Source: a bacterium
Lineage (GTDB): Bacteria > Patescibacteriota > Saccharimonadia > CAILAD01 > JADZBC01
Direction: 5' to 3'
Assembly (NCBI GenBank): GCA_020852295.1
Contig: JADZBC010000009.1
Span: forward strand, 104,628-168,627
DNA: 64,000 bases
Every line of letters begins with the position of its first letter. Position 1 is the stretch's first letter. Below are positions 8,232 to 54,887 of the stretch, in pieces. The position numbers were made by a program, and so were the translations under genes. The notes beneath the pieces are model-generated. The model worked only from the letters and a program-made list of their open reading frames with translations. It did not search any database and was not told the DNA's origin.

Positions 8232-8277
8232 AAACAAATGCGGGAGGCTTATAAGCTTTTCCCGCATCTGTTTGTTG
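8232..8277 (-). terminator. hairpin after the small upstream gene (acaaatgcggga...tcccgcatctgt)
   Basis: About 13 bp imperfect inverted repeat around a palindromic loop (gcttataagc), immediately 3' of the 8279..8479 gene on the minus strand. Confidence 0.45.
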
Positions 8278-8278
8278 T

Positions 8279-8479
8279 CTAATTTTCTTCAGGTACGTTG
8301 AGTTCGTTGTACTGAGCTTCGGTAACAAATCGAGTTAGATTGGTGCCGTTGTTCTGCGCACGAACTGCGTAACGAGTCTGAGTGCTGCCATTCTTGGTCT
8401 CGCGGACAAACTTCTTCTTGGTCAGTTTGCTGTCGTCAATCTCGACCTTGGCACGGGCCTTTACGTCGTAAAACTGCAT
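8279..8479 (-). CDS. small hypothetical protein (66 aa), basic, upstream of lexA
   Basis: ORF has an SD-like aggagg upstream and its own terminator hairpin. No domain recognised. Confidence 0.45.
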   Translation of the reverse strand: MQFYDVKARAKVEIDDSKLTKKKFVRETKNGSTQTRYAVRAQNNGTNLTRFVTEAQYNELNVPEEN

Positions 8480-10078: not shown

Positions 10079-10306
10079 ATGAACCCAACTGATCCAGCAA
10101 CTCCAGCAGTAGATCCTGCTGCAACACCAGCACCAGCTGCTGACCCAGCAATGGCACCAATGCCTGCCGACCCAGCTCCAGCTGCTCCGGCAGAAGAGCC
10201 AGTAAACCCAGCAGGCGACATGCCAACCGCTCCAGCCGGTGATGCACCAGCTCCAGATGCCGCTGCACCTGCTAGCGATACTCCGCCAGCTGCCCCAGGA
10301 ATGTAG
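10079..10306 (+). CDS. Pro/Ala-rich acidic low-complexity protein (75 aa)
   Basis: Strong SD aaggagga. Native A/T-ending codon use. Followed by a terminator. Confidence 0.45.
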   Translation: MNPTDPATPAVDPAATPAPAADPAMAPMPADPAPAAPAEEPVNPAGDMPTAPAGDAPAPDAAAPASDTPPAAPGM

Positions 10307-10353: not shown

Positions 10354-10396
10354 GATTTGGCAGAAAACAGGTTTGACAGTAAAATAGTGAGACGTA

Positions 10397-10480
10397 GGGG
10401 CTCGTAGCTCAGTGGTTGTTGCATCGTCAGGCGTGCTTCAGATGATACTGATCTAACCACGACTATTGAGCTACGATCCC
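10397..10480 (+). other. tRNA-like 5' fragment / degenerate tRNA remnant (acceptor + D-arm-like start, then non-tRNA sequence closed by a 13-bp stem)
   Basis: Starts gggctcgtagctcagtggtt like a tRNA but lacks anticodon and T arms. Ends gagctacgatccc, complementary to its 5' end. Confidence 0.4.
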
Positions 10481-10502
10481 TCATTGTGATCGTAAATATT
10501 GG

Positions 10503-10578
10503 GGGCCTGTAGCTCAGTGGTTAGAGCAGGCGGCTCATAACCGCTTGGTCGTTGGTTCGATCCCAACCAGGCCCACCA
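10503..10578 (+). tRNA. tRNA with CAT anticodon, most similar to tRNA-Ile2 (lysidine, k2CAU)
   Basis: 76-nt cloverleaf with anticodon loop cuCAUaa. Acceptor C4-G69/C5-G68. Anticodon arm is near-identical to E. coli ileX. Confidence 0.75.
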
Positions 10579-10690
10579 AAGATAATATTTAAAAAAGGCT
10601 CACAGTAAGCCTTTTTTGTTTGCGACGGGCTAGAAGAGCCTTGAATCTCATCTAGCTGTCGTTGCTTGAAAGTCGGAGTATAATAAAAGC

Positions 10691-11182: not shown

Positions 11183-12049
11183 ATGAAAGTACGAAAAGCA
11201 ATTATCCCGGCAGCCGGTCTTGGTACCCGCTTCCTCCCGATGACTAAGGCGATGCCAAAAGAGATGTTGCCGATCATCGATAAGCCAGTTATTCAGTATG
11301 TCGTAGAGGAGGCGGTCGCGGCCGGCATCACCGACATTATTATTGTTACTGGGCAGCACAAGCGACCGGTCGAGGATCACTTCGACCACCAGTATGAGCT
11401 TGAGGCAAGCTTACGCGAAAAAGGTAAAGATGAGGTGGCTGACGAGCTAGCCCGCATCGCCGATATGGCCAATTTTATTTATGTTCGTCAAAAGGGCCAT
11501 TATGGTAACGGTACGCCGATCCTCAATGCGGCCCATCTAATTGGCGATGAGCCATTTCTCGTACTTTGGGCCGATGACTTTGTGCGTTCTACCGTGCCGC
11601 GCGCCAAGCAGCTGGTTGATGCCTATGAGCAGCTTCAGGCGCCCGTTATCTCACTCATCCCGATCAAGCCGTCTGATGCGAGCAAGTACGGCGTGCCAGC
11701 GATTCGCAGCAAGCGCGAGGCTGACCTTTTTGAGATCGAAAAACTCGTCGAGAAGCCAGGCGTTGATGAAGCGCCAAGTAAGTTTGGGTCGGTTGGTGGC
11801 TACATCCTCACGCCCGACATAATTCCACTACTAGAGGCACAGCATCCCGACAAGACCGGTGAAGTCTATCTGAGTACCGCGATTGACCAATTGGCCGCTA
11901 AGCGTCCGGTTTTTGGAAAGGTTATCGAAGGCACTTGGCATGATACTGGCAGTAAGACGACTTACCTGCAGGCCATTGTTGACGTTGCGCTCGAAGACAA
12001 GAAGATTGGGCCAGCCTTTCGCAAATATCTCGAAAATAAACTTAAATAA
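11183..12049 (+). CDS. galU: UTP--glucose-1-phosphate uridylyltransferase
   Basis: KAIIPAAGLGTRFLPMTKAMPKEMLPIIDKPVIQYVVEEA is the GalU signature. Confidence 0.85.
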   Translation: MKVRKAIIPAAGLGTRFLPMTKAMPKEMLPIIDKPVIQYVVEEAVAAGITDIIIVTGQHKRPVEDHFDHQYELEASLREKGKDEVADELARIADMANFIYVRQKGHYGNGTPILNAAHLIGDEPFLVLWADDFVRSTVPRAKQLVDAYEQLQAPVISLIPIKPSDASKYGVPAIRSKREADLFEIEKLVEKPGVDEAPSKFGSVGGYILTPDIIPLLEAQHPDKTGEVYLSTAIDQLAAKRPVFGKVIEGTWHDTGSKTTYLQAIVDVALEDKKIGPAFRKYLENKLK

Positions 12050-12150
12050 TTAGCACAAAGGGAAGCGGCTCGGTTGAGCCCCGCGAGTACGTCGTTGTAC
12101 CGCAGGACTCTTCCGAGCCGCGTGTGCCCATTCGGGCGGTTCCCCAGAGA

Positions 12151-13188
12151 TCAGGCCTCGTCGGCCTGTTGCCGGCGCGGCTTGCGCGCCAGCAGGATGG
12201 ACGATCCCGCCGCAAAGAGCAGCAGGCCGCCCGCCACCAGCCACGGCGTGTAGCTGTTGGGGCCGGTGCAGGCGAGCCCACGGGGTGGGCAGTCGCTGCT
12301 CGGCCTGTTGCCGGCTGAGCTGGGGGTGGTCGTGGTCACCGCCGGGGCGGTGGTCGACGTCGTGCTCGTGCTGGTCGTCGTGGTGACGATGTCGCTCGTG
12401 CACTTGCCGTCCAGTCCTGGCGTGATCGCCCCCGAAAGGGTGATCGTGCGTCCGTCCTCGGCTTGCGCCACCAGCTGGTAGCTCGTCACCGTGGTGGCGC
12501 CGGGCAGCTGGTAGTTGTGGGCTTCAGCCGTACCCTCGCGGAGGGAGAGTCCGGCAAGGCCGGGAAAGGTCGGTGAACTCGTCACCGTCCAGTTCACGTC
12601 GCCGTTGTTGGACGCCTCCACCCGGAGGGAGTACACACCGACCGTCTCGCACTTGGCGTAGGCCTGGGTCGAACCCAGCAGCTCCGTCGGTGGCTTGACG
12701 GTCGTGGTGGTCGTCTTCATGGTGGTGGTCGTGACCGGTGGCTTGCAGCCGGTGGCCTCGTAGACGGCTTCGCGGCTGTCGCCGCCATCGCCGTCCGTCC
12801 ACTCCATGTCGAAGAAGATCAACCCTTGGCCGACTGAAGTCTTGGCGAGCTTGAGGCTCGCGGACGCGGTCTGGCCGGGCTTGACCTCGCCGAGGTTCGC
12901 GTACACCGAGGTGTCGCGATCAACGGCCGAGACGTACATCGACCGATGGTCGTTGTTGGTGAAGGAGACCTTCACCACGACCGACTGACTGCCCTCGGGG
13001 CAGCTGGCCGACGCGCTGGTTTCCACCGTCCACGCGCCAGCCACTTGGGCCGTCGCGATGGTGAACAGGCAGCCGATGAGGGCCGCCACGAGAATACGCA
13101 ATTGGCGCATTTGAAAACTCAACTTTCTCTGGGGATGTGGGGAACACCGTGGTGCGGCCAGCCGAAGCGGCGCAAACACGGAAGGCAT
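12151..13188 (-). CDS. secreted, Thr-rich cell-wall-anchored surface protein with LAxTG-type sorting signal (high-GC, foreign)
   Basis: Signal peptide. Thr-rich linkers. C-terminal LACTG + hydrophobic stretch + RKPRRQQ tail. Local GC about 68% by eye, against about 50% background. Confidence 0.7.
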   Translation of the reverse strand: MPSVFAPLRLAAPRCSPHPQRKLSFQMRQLRILVAALIGCLFTIATAQVAGAWTVETSASASCPEGSQSVVVKVSFTNNDHRSMYVSAVDRDTSVYANLGEVKPGQTASASLKLAKTSVGQGLIFFDMEWTDGDGGDSREAVYEATGCKPPVTTTTMKTTTTTVKPPTELLGSTQAYAKCETVGVYSLRVEASNNGDVNWTVTSSPTFPGLAGLSLREGTAEAHNYQLPGATTVTSYQLVAQAEDGRTITLSGAITPGLDGKCTSDIVTTTTSTSTTSTTAPAVTTTTPSSAGNRPSSDCPPRGLACTGPNSYTPWLVAGGLLLFAAGSSILLARKPRRQQADEA

Positions 13189-13302
13189 AAGATACCATAA
13201 AATACAAAAAAAGTCAATATATTTCGCATCTAATGCTTAAGCTTGATCTGGAGGGGGAATTATTGTACTATAGCAATCCCGTTCCCAACCTGTGAGGTTA
13301 TC

Positions 13303-13848
13303 ATGAAGCTTTACCAGCAATGGTGCCGATTGCGCACCCGCCTGAAGCTGGGTCGCCGCCATGGCTTCCCGCCCGGACTCCAGAATGTGTCCACATCTCA
13401 GCCCGGCGAGTCGTTTCGCGCCCGCCCCAACTTCTACTGGTATCGAGCGATCGGATGGCCGAGCTACATGCCGGTCTATCCTCAGCCAGCGCTCGTTCGT
13501 GGTACCGCCATCACCGAAGGGTGGCCGTGCGAGTTTCGCAGCACGCGCTGGCGCGCCCGTTGGGCCGGCCCGTACTGTGTTGACTGCGACGACCCAGCAG
13601 GTGATTGGGTGCTCGTAGTCGGCCAGGTGCATGGTGAGTTGGTGCGCAACGAGCACAAGCTGGCGGATGGCACACATGAGTCGTCCGACATCTGGAACCG
13701 CATCAAGGCTCCAATCGAGAAGCTTCGGCCCGGTATTGATCCGGCCACGCTCAGGATCGATGCGACGGGCATGTTCGTCTACGGCTACGTGCCGGACCTC
13801 TGGTTCGGCAACACCGGCTGGCACGACATCCCAGACGAGGAAGGGTGA
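13303..13848 (+). CDS. hypothetical Trp/Arg-rich protein on the high-GC island
   Basis: Very high third-position GC in this frame, about 80% counted by hand. ATG at 13303 chosen over the upstream in-frame start; start uncertain. Confidence 0.45.
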   Translation: MKLYQQWCRLRTRLKLGRRHGFPPGLQNVSTSQPGESFRARPNFYWYRAIGWPSYMPVYPQPALVRGTAITEGWPCEFRSTRWRARWAGPYCVDCDDPAGDWVLVVGQVHGELVRNEHKLADGTHESSDIWNRIKAPIEKLRPGIDPATLRIDATGMFVYGYVPDLWFGNTGWHDIPDEEG

Positions 13849-13852
13849 ATCG

Positions 13853-13886
13853 CCCCGACAGGCTCCGCTTGTCGGGGTTTGTCGTT
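13853..13886 (+). terminator. hairpin ccccgac...gtcgggg + T-rich tail
   Basis: 7-bp GC stem immediately after the TGA of the island gene. Confidence 0.5.
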
Positions 13887-13932
13887 ATTGATGATTGCAC
13901 AATTTTCTCGGTAGTCGTAGGATAGATATGGT

Positions 13933-14697
13933 ATGGCAAAGAACGAAGCACTCATCAAGGTAAAGGACATCAAGAAATACTACGGCGATTTTGCCGCGGT
14001 TAAAGGTGTTAGCTTTGAAGTAAAGCCGGGTGAAGTTTTTGGCATTCTGGGGCCAAATGGTGCCGGTAAAACCACGACGCTCGAGATGATCGAGGGCTTA
14101 AAATCGATTGATGACGGTAAAGCCACGATCAACGGTCTTGATGTCGTCCGCGACCCCTATGGCGTCAAAGAAATTATTGGCGTACAGCTCCAGGCATCGG
14201 CTTTTTTCGATCATCTTTCACTAGTAGAGATACTGCATTTATTTTCAAACCTGTACGCCCAAAACAAAGATCCGCAAGAGCTTCTACGCGAAGTCGACCT
14301 GACCGAGAAGGCCAAGGCCTACGTCAAGAGCCTGTCGGGCGGGCAAAAGCAACGCTTTAGTATCGCTGCCGCGCTGGTCAATGACCCCGTTGCCTTGTTT
14401 CTTGATGAGCCAACAACTGGACTCGATCCGCAGGCGCGGCGCAACTTGTGGGATCTAGTTCAGGACATTCAGAAGTCCGGCAAGACGATCGTCATCACCA
14501 CGCACTATATGGAAGAAGCAGAAGTGCTCTGTGATCGGGTGGCAATTATGGATCACGGCGAGATTATTGCTCTGGATACCCCAAGTAAGCTCATTGATAA
14601 CTTGCTCAAAAAAGGCTTTAAGCCGAAGACGGAAGTAAAAAAGGCGACTCTTGAGGATGTATTTATTGATTTAACTGGGCATGAGTTGAGGGACTAA
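13933..14697 (+). CDS. ABC transporter ATP-binding protein
   Basis: Walker A GPNGAGKTT. LSGGQKQR signature. Walker B LFLDEPTTGLD. Confidence 0.85.
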   Translation: MAKNEALIKVKDIKKYYGDFAAVKGVSFEVKPGEVFGILGPNGAGKTTTLEMIEGLKSIDDGKATINGLDVVRDPYGVKEIIGVQLQASAFFDHLSLVEILHLFSNLYAQNKDPQELLREVDLTEKAKAYVKSLSGGQKQRFSIAAALVNDPVALFLDEPTTGLDPQARRNLWDLVQDIQKSGKTIVITTHYMEEAEVLCDRVAIMDHGEIIALDTPSKLIDNLLKKGFKPKTEVKKATLEDVFIDLTGHELRD

Positions 14698-18158: not shown

Positions 18159-18234
18159 CGCGGGGTAGAGCAATTGGCAGCTCGTCGGGCTCATAACCCG
18201 GAGGTTGCAGGTTCGAGTCCTGCCCCCGCCACCA
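18159..18234 (+). tRNA. initiator tRNA-fMet (CAT)
   Basis: C1-C72 mismatch. Three G-C pairs closing the anticodon stem (tcGGGcuCAUaaCCCgg). Near-identical to E. coli metZ. Confidence 0.9.
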
Positions 18235-20344: not shown

Positions 20345-20421
20345 GGCTGCGTAGCTCAGTTGGTTAGAGCGCGGGACTCATAAGCCTGAGGTCGGAGGTT
20401 CAATTCCTCCCGCAGCCACCA
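20345..20421 (+). tRNA. elongator tRNA-Met (CAT)
   Basis: 77-nt cloverleaf. Acceptor and D-arm ggctgcgtagctcagttggttagagc resemble E. coli metT. Anticodon loop cuCAUaa. Confidence 0.8.
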
Positions 20422-38404: not shown

Positions 38405-38959
38405 ATGACCGAATTGCGCGATTACTTCGCGTACGGCTCCAACAACGACGCGCAGATGCTGGAGCGCCTCGGTCGACTGCCGTCCAAGGCGGTTGGCTTC
38501 GCCGAGCTGCATGGCTTTCGACCCGCCTTCATGGGTCGGAGCGTCAAGCGGTTCTGTGCCACGCTCACCGCCGTTCACACCGGCGACTTCGCCGATCGCG
38601 TGTTCGGCACGCTGTACCTCGACCTGACGGAAGAGGAGTTCGCCATCCTCGACCGCAAGGAAGGGGTGAAGTACGACGATCAGGGCAAGCCGACGGGCCG
38701 CTACATGCGGATCAGCCGACCGGTGACGATCAACGAAGGCGAGACCGCCGATCGTCAGGCTGAGCTCTACGTGATGACCGGCAACCTGCAGGTCGATCGC
38801 GAGGAGCGTGCGCCCAGCACGGACTACCTCTACAACGTCCTACAGGCCGCCTTCACGGCGGGCATGCCCGACTGGTACATCAAGAAGTACCTCATGGTGC
38901 CCACCGAGAACGTCGTGCGCCACGAGCGCATGCCGATCGACGACTGGCAGCCCGCCTGA
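38405..38959 (+). CDS. gamma-glutamylcyclotransferase (AIG2/GGCT-like), high-GC foreign gene
   Basis: N-terminal YFAYGSN motif. GC about 65% by eye with strong GC3 bias. Confidence 0.65.
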   Translation: MTELRDYFAYGSNNDAQMLERLGRLPSKAVGFAELHGFRPAFMGRSVKRFCATLTAVHTGDFADRVFGTLYLDLTEEEFAILDRKEGVKYDDQGKPTGRYMRISRPVTINEGETADRQAELYVMTGNLQVDREERAPSTDYLYNVLQAAFTAGMPDWYIKKYLMVPTENVVRHERMPIDDWQPA

Positions 38960-39012: not shown

Positions 39013-39082
39013 CTATACTTTGCCGACAGATTGACTATTTTACTATTTTGAGCTTAAATATATGAGTTCATTGCCCCGTTGA

Positions 39083-39184
39083 GGCCCTTAGCTCAGTTGG
39101 TTGTCTCGCTTTGCGAGCTTCAAAATATGTGCTCGGACATTAACAGATTAAATACTTCGCTCCACGAACATTAATTTAATTCGT
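39083..39184 (+). other. tRNA-like 5' fragment (first about 20 nt identical to tRNA-Lys 5' end) followed by hairpin-rich spacer
   Basis: ggcccttagctcagttggtt is identical to the start of the adjacent tRNA-Lys, then diverges. No anticodon or T arm. Confidence 0.4.
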
Positions 39185-39261
39185 GGGCCCTTAGCTCAGT
39201 TGGTTAGAGCACCTGCCTTTTAAGCAGGGTGTCGTGGGTTCGAGCCCCACAGGGCCCTCCA
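39185..39261 (+). tRNA. tRNA-Lys (TTT)
   Basis: Cloverleaf with anticodon loop cuUUUaa. T-arm gtgggttcgagccccac. CCA encoded. Confidence 0.9.
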
Positions 39262-39360: not shown

Positions 39361-39981
39361 ATGCCTGCCAAAAAACAAAAAAGCTTCGTACCTTCAATAA
39401 AATCAGTTAAATCACCTTCAAAGCGCCGCATAATTGTTGGACTATTATTAATTGCCGTCCTCGGCGGTGTAGCATTAGTATTGCGAAGTCTTGCCGCCGG
39501 ACCATATACGCTTGTTCGAACTATGGGCAGGTCGGCGGGTTTCAGCTATAACGACGGGATATATATGGGAGTTAATGCTGGATCTCCGCCGACATGTTCT
39601 AGAACCTCAGTATATGATGATCGCTGGAAGTTTAATGTGGCAGTACTTGGGTGCCAGCAGCGCGGCAACTACGCAGATCATGTATGGGCACACGCAAGGT
39701 GGGATAACCCTGGAGCAGGAAATTGGAAATTGTGCGCATGGGTAATTGGTGTCTCAAAGGGGCTGCTGTTCGAGGTTTTTCTCGGTTCGAAGGAAGGTGG
39801 AACAAAAATACTTAATGAAAGGATTCCTATCTTCAATAACTCTCAATATCAGTACCTATGTACGCAGAATAGTATATGGGCTGATTATGGTAAAACCTAC
39901 GGCGCTCAGATAGCTGTATATCCCTATGCTGATTCGGGGACCATAGTTCGTGTGGCATCAATCAATCTCGTTCGACAGTAG
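39361..39981 (+). CDS. hypothetical membrane-anchored secreted protein
   Basis: Basic N-terminus with a single TM. Cys-containing extracellular domain. No recognised domain. Confidence 0.45.
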   Translation: MPAKKQKSFVPSIKSVKSPSKRRIIVGLLLIAVLGGVALVLRSLAAGPYTLVRTMGRSAGFSYNDGIYMGVNAGSPPTCSRTSVYDDRWKFNVAVLGCQQRGNYADHVWAHARWDNPGAGNWKLCAWVIGVSKGLLFEVFLGSKEGGTKILNERIPIFNNSQYQYLCTQNSIWADYGKTYGAQIAVYPYADSGTIVRVASINLVRQ

Positions 39982-54828: not shown

Positions 54829-54887
54829 CATCCGCCATGTCGTCACAGGAAAAAATTATATCATCAAAGTACCAATCTGAACAGATA

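Follow-up and report, generated by a model that had tools for sequence, protein, structure and literature searches.

Putative structured leader elements that begin with a copy of the 5' part of their own tRNA in a Saccharibacteria genome and its relatives

The stretch of DNA analysed here (the window) comprises 64 kb, or 64,000 nucleotides (nt), of a genome of Saccharibacteria (TM7), and the present work concerns two short sequences within it, element A and element B, each of which lies between a promoter or promoter-like site and a transfer RNA (tRNA) gene and begins with a copy of the 5' part of that same gene. Relatives of GalU and of other window genes were found in Saccharimonadia/Patescibacteria only, and the species of the window is not represented in the Genome Taxonomy Database (GTDB) set. 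Nine tRNA genes were identified in the window using ARAGORN and Rfam. Two of them, both intact and on the + strand, follow the elements: tRNA(CAU) at 10503-10578 (72.4 bits) is the cognate tRNA of element A, and tRNA-Lys(UUU) at 39185-39261 (72.3 bits) that of element B. The former is probably tRNA-Ile2, a plausible identity that was reached by elimination alone. Three tRNA(CAU) genes, each with its own promoter-like site and terminator, are located within 10 kb (at 10503, 18159 and 20345); the gene at 18159 resembles an initiator and that at 20345 an elongator Met, and the gene at 10503 is the probable Ile2. Of the three, only the gene at 10503 is preceded by a leader element.

The copy that opens element A, GGGGCTCGTAGCTCAGTGGTT at 10397-10417, shares 19 of its 21 bases with tRNA(CAU) 10502-10522, at a start-to-start spacing of 105 nt. 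In element B the copy (GGCCCTTAGCTCAGTTGGTT, 39083-39102) is identical in 20 of 20 bases to tRNA-Lys(UUU) 39186-39205, and the spacing is 103 nt. An earlier note on this DNA had placed tRNA-like 5' fragments at 10397 and 39083 and had described the first 20 or so nt of element B as identical to tRNA-Lys; both statements agree with these comparisons. The two copies end at the same point, past the GGTT of the D-loop, and GT follows in both. A search of the window with the D-arm 14-mer, allowing up to two mismatches, gave 10 matches against 1.09 expected, and eight of the ten are explained, six by real tRNA genes and two by the fragments of A and B. No comparable 5' fragment was found upstream of the other seven tRNA genes of the window. 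For convenience, the copies are called decoys below.

The promoter of the element A/tRNA(CAU) unit was found at 10357-10385 (+), with TTGGCA and TAAAAT separated by a 17-nt spacer and 10 of 12 matches to the consensus. Transcription would start near 10392, about 5 nt 5' of the decoy. Since the promoter lies just 5' of the element, the fragment occupies the place where the tRNA itself would normally begin. The decoy (10397-10417, +; tRNA nt 1-21) is followed by an apical stem-loop, hairpin 1, at 10421-10436 (+; GCAuCGU CAG GCGUGC), whose sequence has changed while the hairpin has been retained in L153, L062, L069, L053 and L137 (related loci are referred to by L numbers throughout). Next come an A-rich linker, TTCAGATGATA, at 10437-10447 (+), which is predicted to be mostly single-stranded, and the anti-D box, CTGATCTAACCAC, at 10448-10460 (+), which is complementary in 12 of 13 positions to tRNA positions 10517-10529 (GTGGTTAGAGCAG; p = 0.002), a target that extends past the duplicated 21 nt. 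The antisense arm, TGAGCTACGATCCC, at 10467-10480 (+), forms inverted repeats with both the decoy and the tRNA, and may therefore pair either with the decoy, giving a leader hairpin, or with the real tRNA 5' strand. The T at 10402 allows a U-A pair with the arm and is a mismatch to the tRNA; sister contigs have a C·A mismatch there. A spacer at 10481-10501 (+), which shows little conservation between species and served as a near-neutral benchmark, leads to the tRNA. RNAfold predicts a long hairpin for element A (-39.9 kcal/mol, z = -5.9). The 13-base-pair (bp) closing stem proposed for it in the earlier note was too short, the predicted fold having 18 contiguous pairs plus 4 more, G·U pairs included. 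A mini-open reading frame (mini-ORF), ATG ATA CTG ATC TAA (M-I-L-I), lies inside the element at 10444-10458 and has an AUA codon, which is read by tRNA-Ile2. As a leader peptide it was rejected, having no ribosome-binding site and no ATG in relatives, and it is probably due to chance. Just 5' of element A is a 75-amino-acid (aa) Pro/Ala-rich low-complexity ORF (10079-10306, +), the position of which is conserved in relatives; in L141-L146 it lies directly 5' of the plain tRNA promoter.

The promoter-like site of the element B/tRNA-Lys unit (39031-39059, +; TTGACT, 17-nt spacer, TTAAAT) was recognised by eye and lies under the scan threshold. The decoy at 39083-39102 (+), an exact copy of tRNA-Lys nt 2-21 found by repeat search, is followed by hairpin 1 at 39105-39117 (+; CTCGC TTT GCGAG), by an A-rich linker, CTTCAAAATAT, at 39118-39128 (+), and by a degenerate antisense arm, TGTGCTCGGAC, at 39128-39138 (+), in which GTGCTC is antisense to the tRNA sequence GAGCAC. 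Pairing of arm and decoy is limited to 7 interrupted pairs. The spacer to the tRNA (39139-39184, +) contains an AU-rich hairpin and bears a faint resemblance to the upstream promoter region. Element B was set beside L084 and L132 and aligns with Lys-type elements, from which it differs by the loss of the second hairpin and of the greater part of the arm. It is read as a decayed, degenerate family member that has kept decoy, hairpin 1 and linker. In the relative represented by L148/L147, the gene 3' of tRNA-Lys (206 aa; 39361-39981) has 49% protein identity, as against about 94.5% elsewhere, and the AIG2-like gene 5' of element B (38405-38959) is replaced or divergent. The divergent genes on both sides place the tRNA-Lys/element B locus at the edge of a hypervariable or recombined tract.

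Related loci were gathered via the flanking proteins, by one metagenome pattern scan, and by a survey of every tRNA in the collected loci. The comparison indicates that A and B belong to one leader family of Saccharibacteria/Patescibacteria, members of which were found before tRNA-Ile2, Lys(UUU), Lys(CUU), His and Arg genes. In the shared layout the decoy (tRNA nt 1-21) runs into GU and a GC-rich hairpin that covaries, followed by the A-rich linker, the anti-D box, the antisense arm, the spacer and the tRNA; the arm targets the acceptor and D-stem 5' strands, and the anti-D box targets tRNA nt ~16-28, outside the decoy. The orthologous tRNA-Ile2 is preceded by an element in at least five further lineages, namely L053 (= L075), L062, L069, L137 and L153/L160. 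Lys-type members precede tRNA-Lys(UUU) in L124 and tRNA-Lys(CUU) in L084, and a further member was found in L132, at the locus orthologous to that of element B, on a contig that ends short of the tRNA. In L132 (1089-1243) the element is present in at least two tandem copies, the next unit restarting with decoy and hairpin 1 before the contig end. A looser form precedes tRNA-Arg in L038, and the L063 element (8257-8373, -) occupies the gap that separates tRNA-His from the tRNA upstream, so adjacency to a promoter is not required. The window's own Arg-His spacer (54836-54887, -; 52 nt) has no element. All elements are encoded on the same strand as the tRNA; upstream of them is either the native promoter or another tRNA, and downstream the cognate tRNA.

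Several members occupy orthologous loci despite considerable divergence, as judged by shared synteny: the 65-aa neighbour of element A is 78-90% identical in L069 and L062, the GATase neighbour of element B has 38-50% identity in L132, and L124 adjoins ComEC (40% identity). A promoter copy accompanies the duplication in L124, where about 55 nt are duplicated (p < 0.001), and is marginal in element B (p = 0.013). The possibility that the duplication always includes the promoter was rejected, since no promoter copy was found in A, L053, L062, L069 or L084. Other searches added no member. An Ile2-specific covariance model (R1) did not detect element B (E > 10) and found no copy in the 64-kb window besides A; when viral contigs were scanned with the architecture pattern, the one match was spurious and came from tandemly arrayed tRNA genes on a jumbo-phage contig; the GalU-anchored loci mostly did not include the tRNA; and an exact-match look-up of the 184-aa neighbour of element B returned no match.

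In the alignment of the Ile2-type elements the decoy, the anti-D box and the arm are conserved, and the spacer ahead of the tRNA defies alignment between species. The proposed pairing is formed in 87% of the alignment cells, compared with 30-40% when the partner is slid by 1-3 columns. Changes on both sides were found at 4-5 pairs, and the covariation score (0.18-0.21, against 0.13-0.14 in shuffled alignments) was reached by 0 of 500 shuffles. Hairpin 1 has ten different sequences, each of which forms a 5-6-bp stem at the same position. The L137 decoy has diverged from the tRNA and its arm has followed, whereas the anti-D box remains a perfect match to the tRNA. The compensatory changes among relatives that the earlier note had suggested looking for are thus present, in the 4-5 double-sided pairs, in the co-drift in L137 and in the T at 10402. 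Moreover, the strands differ: the sense strand forms 30 G·U pairs, against 7 for the complement, and has a predicted fold more stable by 2-10 kcal/mol, and on the same loci the covariance model gives 61-100 bits for sense and 12-28 bits for antisense. The excess of G·U pairs and the better sense fold favour a sense-strand RNA over a structure at the DNA level. These comparisons argue for a conserved secondary structure with compensatory changes on the presumed transcribed strand.

The anti-D box is the part of the leader that reaches beyond the duplicated segment. Of the ten leaders compared, seven contain a 9-14-nt perfect complement to tRNA nt 14-34 (p <= 0.002), and the box tracks the bases of each leader's own tRNA (GCAG, GCGA, GAUAGAGC); in element A it is invariant at 12 of 13 positions across seven Ile2-type sequences. 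Ten control leaders had no comparable complement, the sole nominally significant one being the low-complexity ATAATAAT. Two states were predicted for whole precursors. In state I the leader hairpin coexists with the tRNA cloverleaf; in state II the arm and the anti-D box pair with the 5' third of the tRNA, and the decoy pairs with the 3' acceptor strand. The two states are similar in predicted energy, the value for state II less that for state I lying between +5 and -15 kcal/mol. As long as no tRNA has been transcribed, state I is the predicted minimum in all cases, and state II becomes competitive after 18-36 nt of tRNA. When the decoy was deleted in silico, the arm was predicted to invade the tRNA in four of four Ile2-type sequences and in L124 and L063; no such invasion was predicted in L084 or in element B of the window. 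A leader that is bistable between the hairpin and the tRNA-invading arm is suggested by these folds, and the main argument that state II matters is the conservation of the anti-D toehold.

Close relatives differ in the presence of the elements. Element A is present in L153 and L160, whereas L154 and L157 are short by exactly 104 bp, with flanks 99.3-100% identical to L153, and in these empty-site strains the promoter of element A directly drives the tRNA. Strains of both kinds, carrying or lacking element A, occur in metagenomes such as ERZ27296357, ERZ27296359 and ERZ27296353. As for element B, which is unchanged in the same-species contigs L150 and L152, the relative L148 (flanking genes about 94.5% identical to the window) passes from the same promoter, 97% identical there, straight into tRNA-Lys. 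The comparison for free variation among close relatives, which the earlier note took as the sign of neutral decay, gave a mixed result: sequence and structure are conserved where an element is present, and the whole element is precisely absent in some very close relatives. The direction of the change can be read from the decoy of element A, which retains part of the ancestral acceptor sequence. In the L153-type lineage the decoy reads GGGGCCCG, the ancestral acceptor sequence that is still found in the tRNAs of L062, L069, L053, L001 and L141, while the real tRNA now has GGGCCTG. The decoy is consequently older than that substitution in the tRNA, and the empty site of A represents a precise loss, which is most simply explained by deletion between the direct repeats.

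Several known classes were considered for the elements and set aside. With RF00005 and ARAGORN, 10503-10575 and 39185-39258 scored as tRNA (72 bits) and nothing was found over 10397-10501 or 39083-39184 at E <= 10. Rfam 15 has no family for either leader; the covariance scan that the earlier note had proposed gave, at gathering score and at E <= 10, nothing but the downstream tRNAs. T-boxes, riboswitches and curated cis-regulatory RNAs were rejected, as neither region had a relevant match at E <= 10 and only tRNAs reached the gathering score window-wide. An intrinsic terminator or attenuator was not supported either: the scan gave a marginal 5-bp site inside the decoy and true terminators flanking the units, and hairpin 1 is followed by CUU and then an A-rich stretch, not by a U-tract. 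A second promoter inside the element (-10 in the linker, -35 in the D-loop TTGGTT) was rejected because the spacings (18-24 nt) are inconsistent and the scan was negative. A box C/D-like guide was excluded by the lack of conserved C or D boxes and by the antisense lying on the wrong side, and a mimic of an external guide sequence for RNase P by the lack of RCCA after the arm. Group I or II introns do not fit, the insert being too small, its boundaries wrong and the tRNA intact. A tRNA intron is likewise rejected, since the tRNA gene that follows is whole and without interruption, no group I match was obtained, and the insert has just 83-84 nt; those tRNA introns of Patescibacteria that are described in PMC13011429 sit in the anticodon loop. 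A miniature inverted-repeat transposable element (MITE) or small repeat was discarded, given that the covariance model finds A alone in the 64-kb window, that A and B share architecture and not close sequence, and that the duplicated length is not fixed (20-21 nt in the window, about 55 nt including the promoter in L124).

The reading that we tentatively favour, at somewhat less than even confidence, is that of a pre-tRNA leader acting in cis, which hides its own antisense segment against the tRNA and influences how the tRNA folds and is processed by RNase P. Transcription would begin at the native promoter of the tRNA, a few nt 5' of the decoy. The decoy would be made first and would zip up with the antisense arm, enclosing stable apical hairpin 1, so as to form the long leader hairpin (state I); with the arm masked, the downstream tRNA could fold, RNase P would cut at +1, and the leader would be released. 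The 5' half of the anti-D box would stay single-stranded in a large bulge, complementary to the 3' strand of the tRNA D-stem, and could act as a toehold because this target strand is missing from the decoy. A shift of the arm onto the nascent tRNA (state II) would sequester the D-arm and the acceptor 5' strand, place the decoy on the 3' acceptor strand, and block normal folding and 5' processing, so that the leader would set the fraction of transcripts that mature. We infer the transcription of the leader, the action of RNase P or RNase III, the switching in the cell and its trigger; co-transcription with the tRNA would be in keeping with the predicted promoter and the position of the element. 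The stronger proposal, a natural RNA device of tRNA biogenesis in which an antisense "poison", a tRNA-mimicking decoy and a toehold switch between permitted and blocked folding and RNase P cleavage, is possible but doubtful in our estimate. Among the three options raised in the earlier note, "small tRNA-derived structured RNAs" comes nearest, to which the present comparison adds a conserved, strand-specific family with covarying structure in several lineages and at several tRNA species.

It is important to mention the observations that speak against a regulatory leader. Both elements are dispensable, as the precise empty sites in close relatives demonstrate, L001 and L141-L146 have plain Ile2 leaders with no element, and no trigger or ligand is evident. 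Element B has an anti-D box that is almost gone, its complement to the tRNA is only 6 nt (p = 0.22), and its sequence alone, contrary to the hairpin-rich description given in the earlier note, is not significantly structured (z = +0.3 to +0.6). The comparison is based on seven Ile2-type and five other sequences, all of it inference from sequence, and the pattern used for the metagenome scan required TAGCTCAG..TGGTTG, which makes the observed spread across tRNA species biased. The covariation counts are modest and the sequences related, and related sequences can beat every shuffle without any structure; the complementarity of the inverted repeats could also be maintained by templated (quasi-palindrome) mutation and not by selection. 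Finally, nearest-neighbour energies leave aside the tertiary stability and the modifications of the tRNA, so the bistability is only suggestive.

Part of this evidence can be accommodated by a non-adaptive history, the main rival, which we consider rather unlikely. The elements would then be relics of a sense-antisense-sense rearrangement, that is, an inverted plus a direct duplication of the tRNA 5' region, which took place once per locus; they would persist since the decoy must mask a harmful arm (constructive neutral evolution), would have no regulatory role, and would eventually be deleted between the direct repeats. The precise, scar-free losses of A and B in very close relatives, the patchy presence across lineages and the visible decay of element B are in line with such a course, as are the duplicated promoter region of L124 (p < 0.001), which a duplication origin predicts, and the many unrelated duplications of 5' fragments or pseudo-tRNAs before tRNA genes in other phyla. 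Additionally, in every sequence with an intact arm the arm is predicted to invade the tRNA once the decoy is removed, which by itself would select for decoy:arm compensation. What a relic explains less well is the 5' half of the anti-D box, which is not needed for masking and would be safer decayed, yet is near-invariant across the Ile2 lineages and matches each tRNA. The architecture of hairpin 1 and linker is common to the Ile2, Lys and His loci, which is unexpected from independent accidents, and elements have been kept at orthologous loci with flanking proteins only 40-50% identical despite an easy route of deletion. A plain decayed tandem duplicate of the whole tRNA gene, without special structure, is very improbable. 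Its spacing would fit, 103-120 nt being about one tRNA plus spacer, and true examples exist elsewhere (L023 and the tRNA-Met loci L061/L094/L100/L117/L127). However, no significant sense similarity to the tRNA was found past nt 21 (the module after the fragment, compared with the sense rest of its own tRNA, gave p = 0.11-0.48 in eight of nine cases and p = 0.014 in L069 only), an antisense copy of tRNA nt ~1-28 is present in its place, neither Rfam nor ARAGORN detects a tRNA remnant, and compensatory evolution maintains a hairpin that is not a cloverleaf. The "decayed tandem tRNA duplicates" considered in the earlier note were accordingly abandoned. Matches to the anticodon loop and the variable region that had been noticed by eye, and that would have made the insert a sense or antisense copy of the remaining tRNA, failed shuffling.

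Recombination at the DNA level was also weighed, and we think it improbable. Here a tiny mobile or site-specific unit would enter the D-loop of the tRNA gene carrying its own copy of tRNA nt 1-21, so that the gene regains a 5' part while the chromosomal one ends up further upstream, in the manner of attachment (att) sites attL/attR or of integron attC sites, and excision would give the empty sites. The elements do consist of direct repeats of a tRNA segment (21 nt at 19/21 in A, 20 nt at 20/20 in B) around 83-84 bp, at the same D-loop position and with similar spacing in different tRNA genes; precise empty sites exist for B (L148) and for A (L154 and L157), a module is shared between different tRNA species, tandem copies occur in L132, and the leader sequence ATCTAAC and the tRNA sequence GTTAGAG are a loose fit to RYYYAAC and GTTRRRY, the core sites of integrons. 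Nevertheless, the 83-84 nt between the repeats include no cargo, no ORF on the tRNA strand, and no integrase or element DNA, and a scan of ten neighbouring proteins gave no match to a recombinase family, the genes next to A and B being bactofilin/DUF8173, DUF4342, AIG2-like and GATase. The polarity at the empty site of A is that of a loss, and deletion between direct repeats accounts for the empty sites equally well. The strand asymmetry and G·U bias favour a sense-strand RNA, whereas attC works via the bottom DNA strand; the old decoy of A has kept the ancestral acceptor while the tRNA changed and hence was not renewed by re-integration; the similarity of Ile2-type elements roughly tracks that of the flanking genes; and the covariance model gives no further copies in the window. 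The match to attC core sites (ATCTAAC or GTCTAAC in the leader, GTTAGAG in the tRNA) is loose, is broken at the R position by CTCTAAC in three lineages, and follows trivially from the conserved tRNA D-arm GGTTAGAGC. An integron attC site was rejected on the better fold of the sense strand and because no integrase family was found among the ten neighbouring proteins, no window-wide IntI scan having been made, and the "integration scars" of the earlier note, which would call for a cargo gene or a neighbouring recombinase, found no support. Only a slim chance is given to a trans-acting small RNA (sRNA), in which RNase P would free a stable hairpin RNA of about 85-100 nt, with an exposed A-rich linker and anti-D box through which it would target a protein or other RNAs, such as unfolded pre-tRNAs that have GGUUAGAGC in common. 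A stable 5' hairpin with conserved single-stranded segments would suit such a role, the L063 element between two tRNAs would be freed by processing at both ends, and the D-arm GGTTAGAGC is common to several window tRNAs. Set against this, the antisense parts follow the acceptor and the position 25-28 bases of the adjacent tRNA, which suggests a partner in cis; neither an independent terminator nor another target is evident; and the element can be lost without replacement.

The cis-acting leader that we favour can be compared with several known systems. Attenuators and riboswitch platforms of the trp or T-box type use three mutually exclusive segments in an antiterminator/anti-antiterminator logic. 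Similarly, the arm (segment 2) would pair with either the decoy (segment 1) or the 5' third of the tRNA (segment 3), the predicted folding order favouring 1:2 first; unlike attenuators, the leader has no terminator, U-tract, leader peptide or T-box motifs, and its proposed output is tRNA folding and processing. In synthetic toehold switches a hairpin masks a sequence, and a single-stranded complement to the competitor extends past the masked helix. The 5' half of the anti-D box would be the equivalent of such a toehold, in a natural system, in cis, and with a displacement that is putative. Known att tRNA fragments duplicate the 3' part of a tRNA and enclose kilobases including an integrase. 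Elements A and B share with attL/attR the direct repeat of a tRNA segment, the intact gene at one end and the precise empty sites, and differ from them in the duplicated part, which is the 5' one, in the short interval of 83-84 nt between the repeats, in the lack of a recombinase among the neighbouring proteins scanned, and in a strand-specific structure of RNA-like character. With attC sites they have in common an imperfect inverted repeat of about 60-100 nt, loose outer boxes RYYYAAC...GTTRRRY and cassette-like tandem copies in L132; unlike attC, the sense (top) strand folds better, with many G·U pairs, and no integron integrase or array context was seen. To our knowledge, no natural case is described in which a leader controls processing by RNase P. 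A search of the literature, in so far as the sources were accessible, returned no description of such leaders, the nearest analogue being an engineered RNase P riboswitch (PMC7897497). In that device, alternative pairings of the 5' leader allow or hinder maturation by RNase P, as proposed here, in a synthetic, ligand-responsive system that sequesters a single-stranded leader by the cleavage site (PMC7897497). The leaders described here differ in being natural, in having no evident ligand, and in a proposed mechanism that would aim decoy and antisense at the tRNA body, at its acceptor 5' strand and D-arm.

Tandem pseudo-tRNA copies and leader repeats of other bacteria resemble the family in that a 5' fragment lies 5' of the cognate tRNA, in some cases as tandem arrays, and differ in that those families (tRNA-Asn, Thr, Gly, Ala and Met loci) contain sense remnants of the anticodon or T-arm, or other hairpins, with no antisense arm or anti-D box. 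Such 5'-fragment families, returned by the metagenome scan that also gave members of the present family, were observed on contigs with other guanine-plus-cytosine (G+C) content, at tRNA-Asn (L065, L093, L097, L101, L111), Thr (L066), Ala and Ile (L071/L122), Gly (L074/L078/L090/L129) and Val (L083) loci. Their fragments are followed by a GC-rich hairpin, for example TCCCGC..GCGGGA followed by TTAATCAGAG, with no antisense arm, and often form tandem arrays of 75-125-nt units before the cognate tRNA. These loci probably derive from other phyla, and the phenomenon of 5' tRNA fragments seems to be widespread and is possibly undescribed. They were set aside as different phenomena, namely decayed sense pseudo-tRNAs or other repeats with no antisense part. 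True decayed pseudo-copies of whole tRNAs directly 5' of tRNA-Met (L061, L094, L100, L117, L127) or of tRNA-Thr (L023:5876-6009) form a contrast class.

Two further features were observed near element A. In the same-species contigs L043 (1535-2880), L044 and L047, the 3' end of the same tRNA(CAU) carries an insertion of 1.35 kb, an island of two unknown genes (209 and 176 aa); a direct repeat of the tRNA 3' end (AGGCCCACCAA) forms its borders, and it is not present in the window, where the site would be at about 10579-10590. This is a classic 3'-end tRNA integration site next to a 5' element, with no integrase visible. Further downstream, the region 12001-14000 has a G+C content of 0.615, compared with about 0.50 elsewhere in the window, and contains an ORF (12151-13188, -) whose 345-aa, Thr-rich product has a sorting signal of the LACTG type and a membrane anchor at its C-terminus and matches no Pfam family. 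The region may have been acquired horizontally, perhaps from a high-GC host.

Post-transcriptional tuning of individual tRNA supply in bacteria is poorly understood. The genomes of Saccharibacteria and other Patescibacteria are tiny, encode few protein regulators and carry their tRNA genes in single copy, so that an RNA-only device before essential tRNAs would be a plausible and testable regulatory layer. One Saccharibacterium, Southlakia epibionticum, is reported to be transformable (Wang et al., Cell 2023). The presence of 5' fragments of this kind can mislead tRNA annotation, the calling of att sites and the prediction of islands in genomes of the Candidate Phyla Radiation (CPR). Even if the elements are non-adaptive, they would provide a clean natural case of a potentially harmful antisense segment that is checked by compensatory evolution and removed by precise deletion. 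The design itself, a decoy and an antisense arm with a toehold that evolve together with their tRNA, is of interest to RNA engineers. If the stronger proposal of a switching RNA device is true, the family would represent the first natural riboregulator of bacterial tRNA maturation, and would give these organisms RNA-only control of the supply of individual tRNAs (Ile2, Lys, His and Arg).

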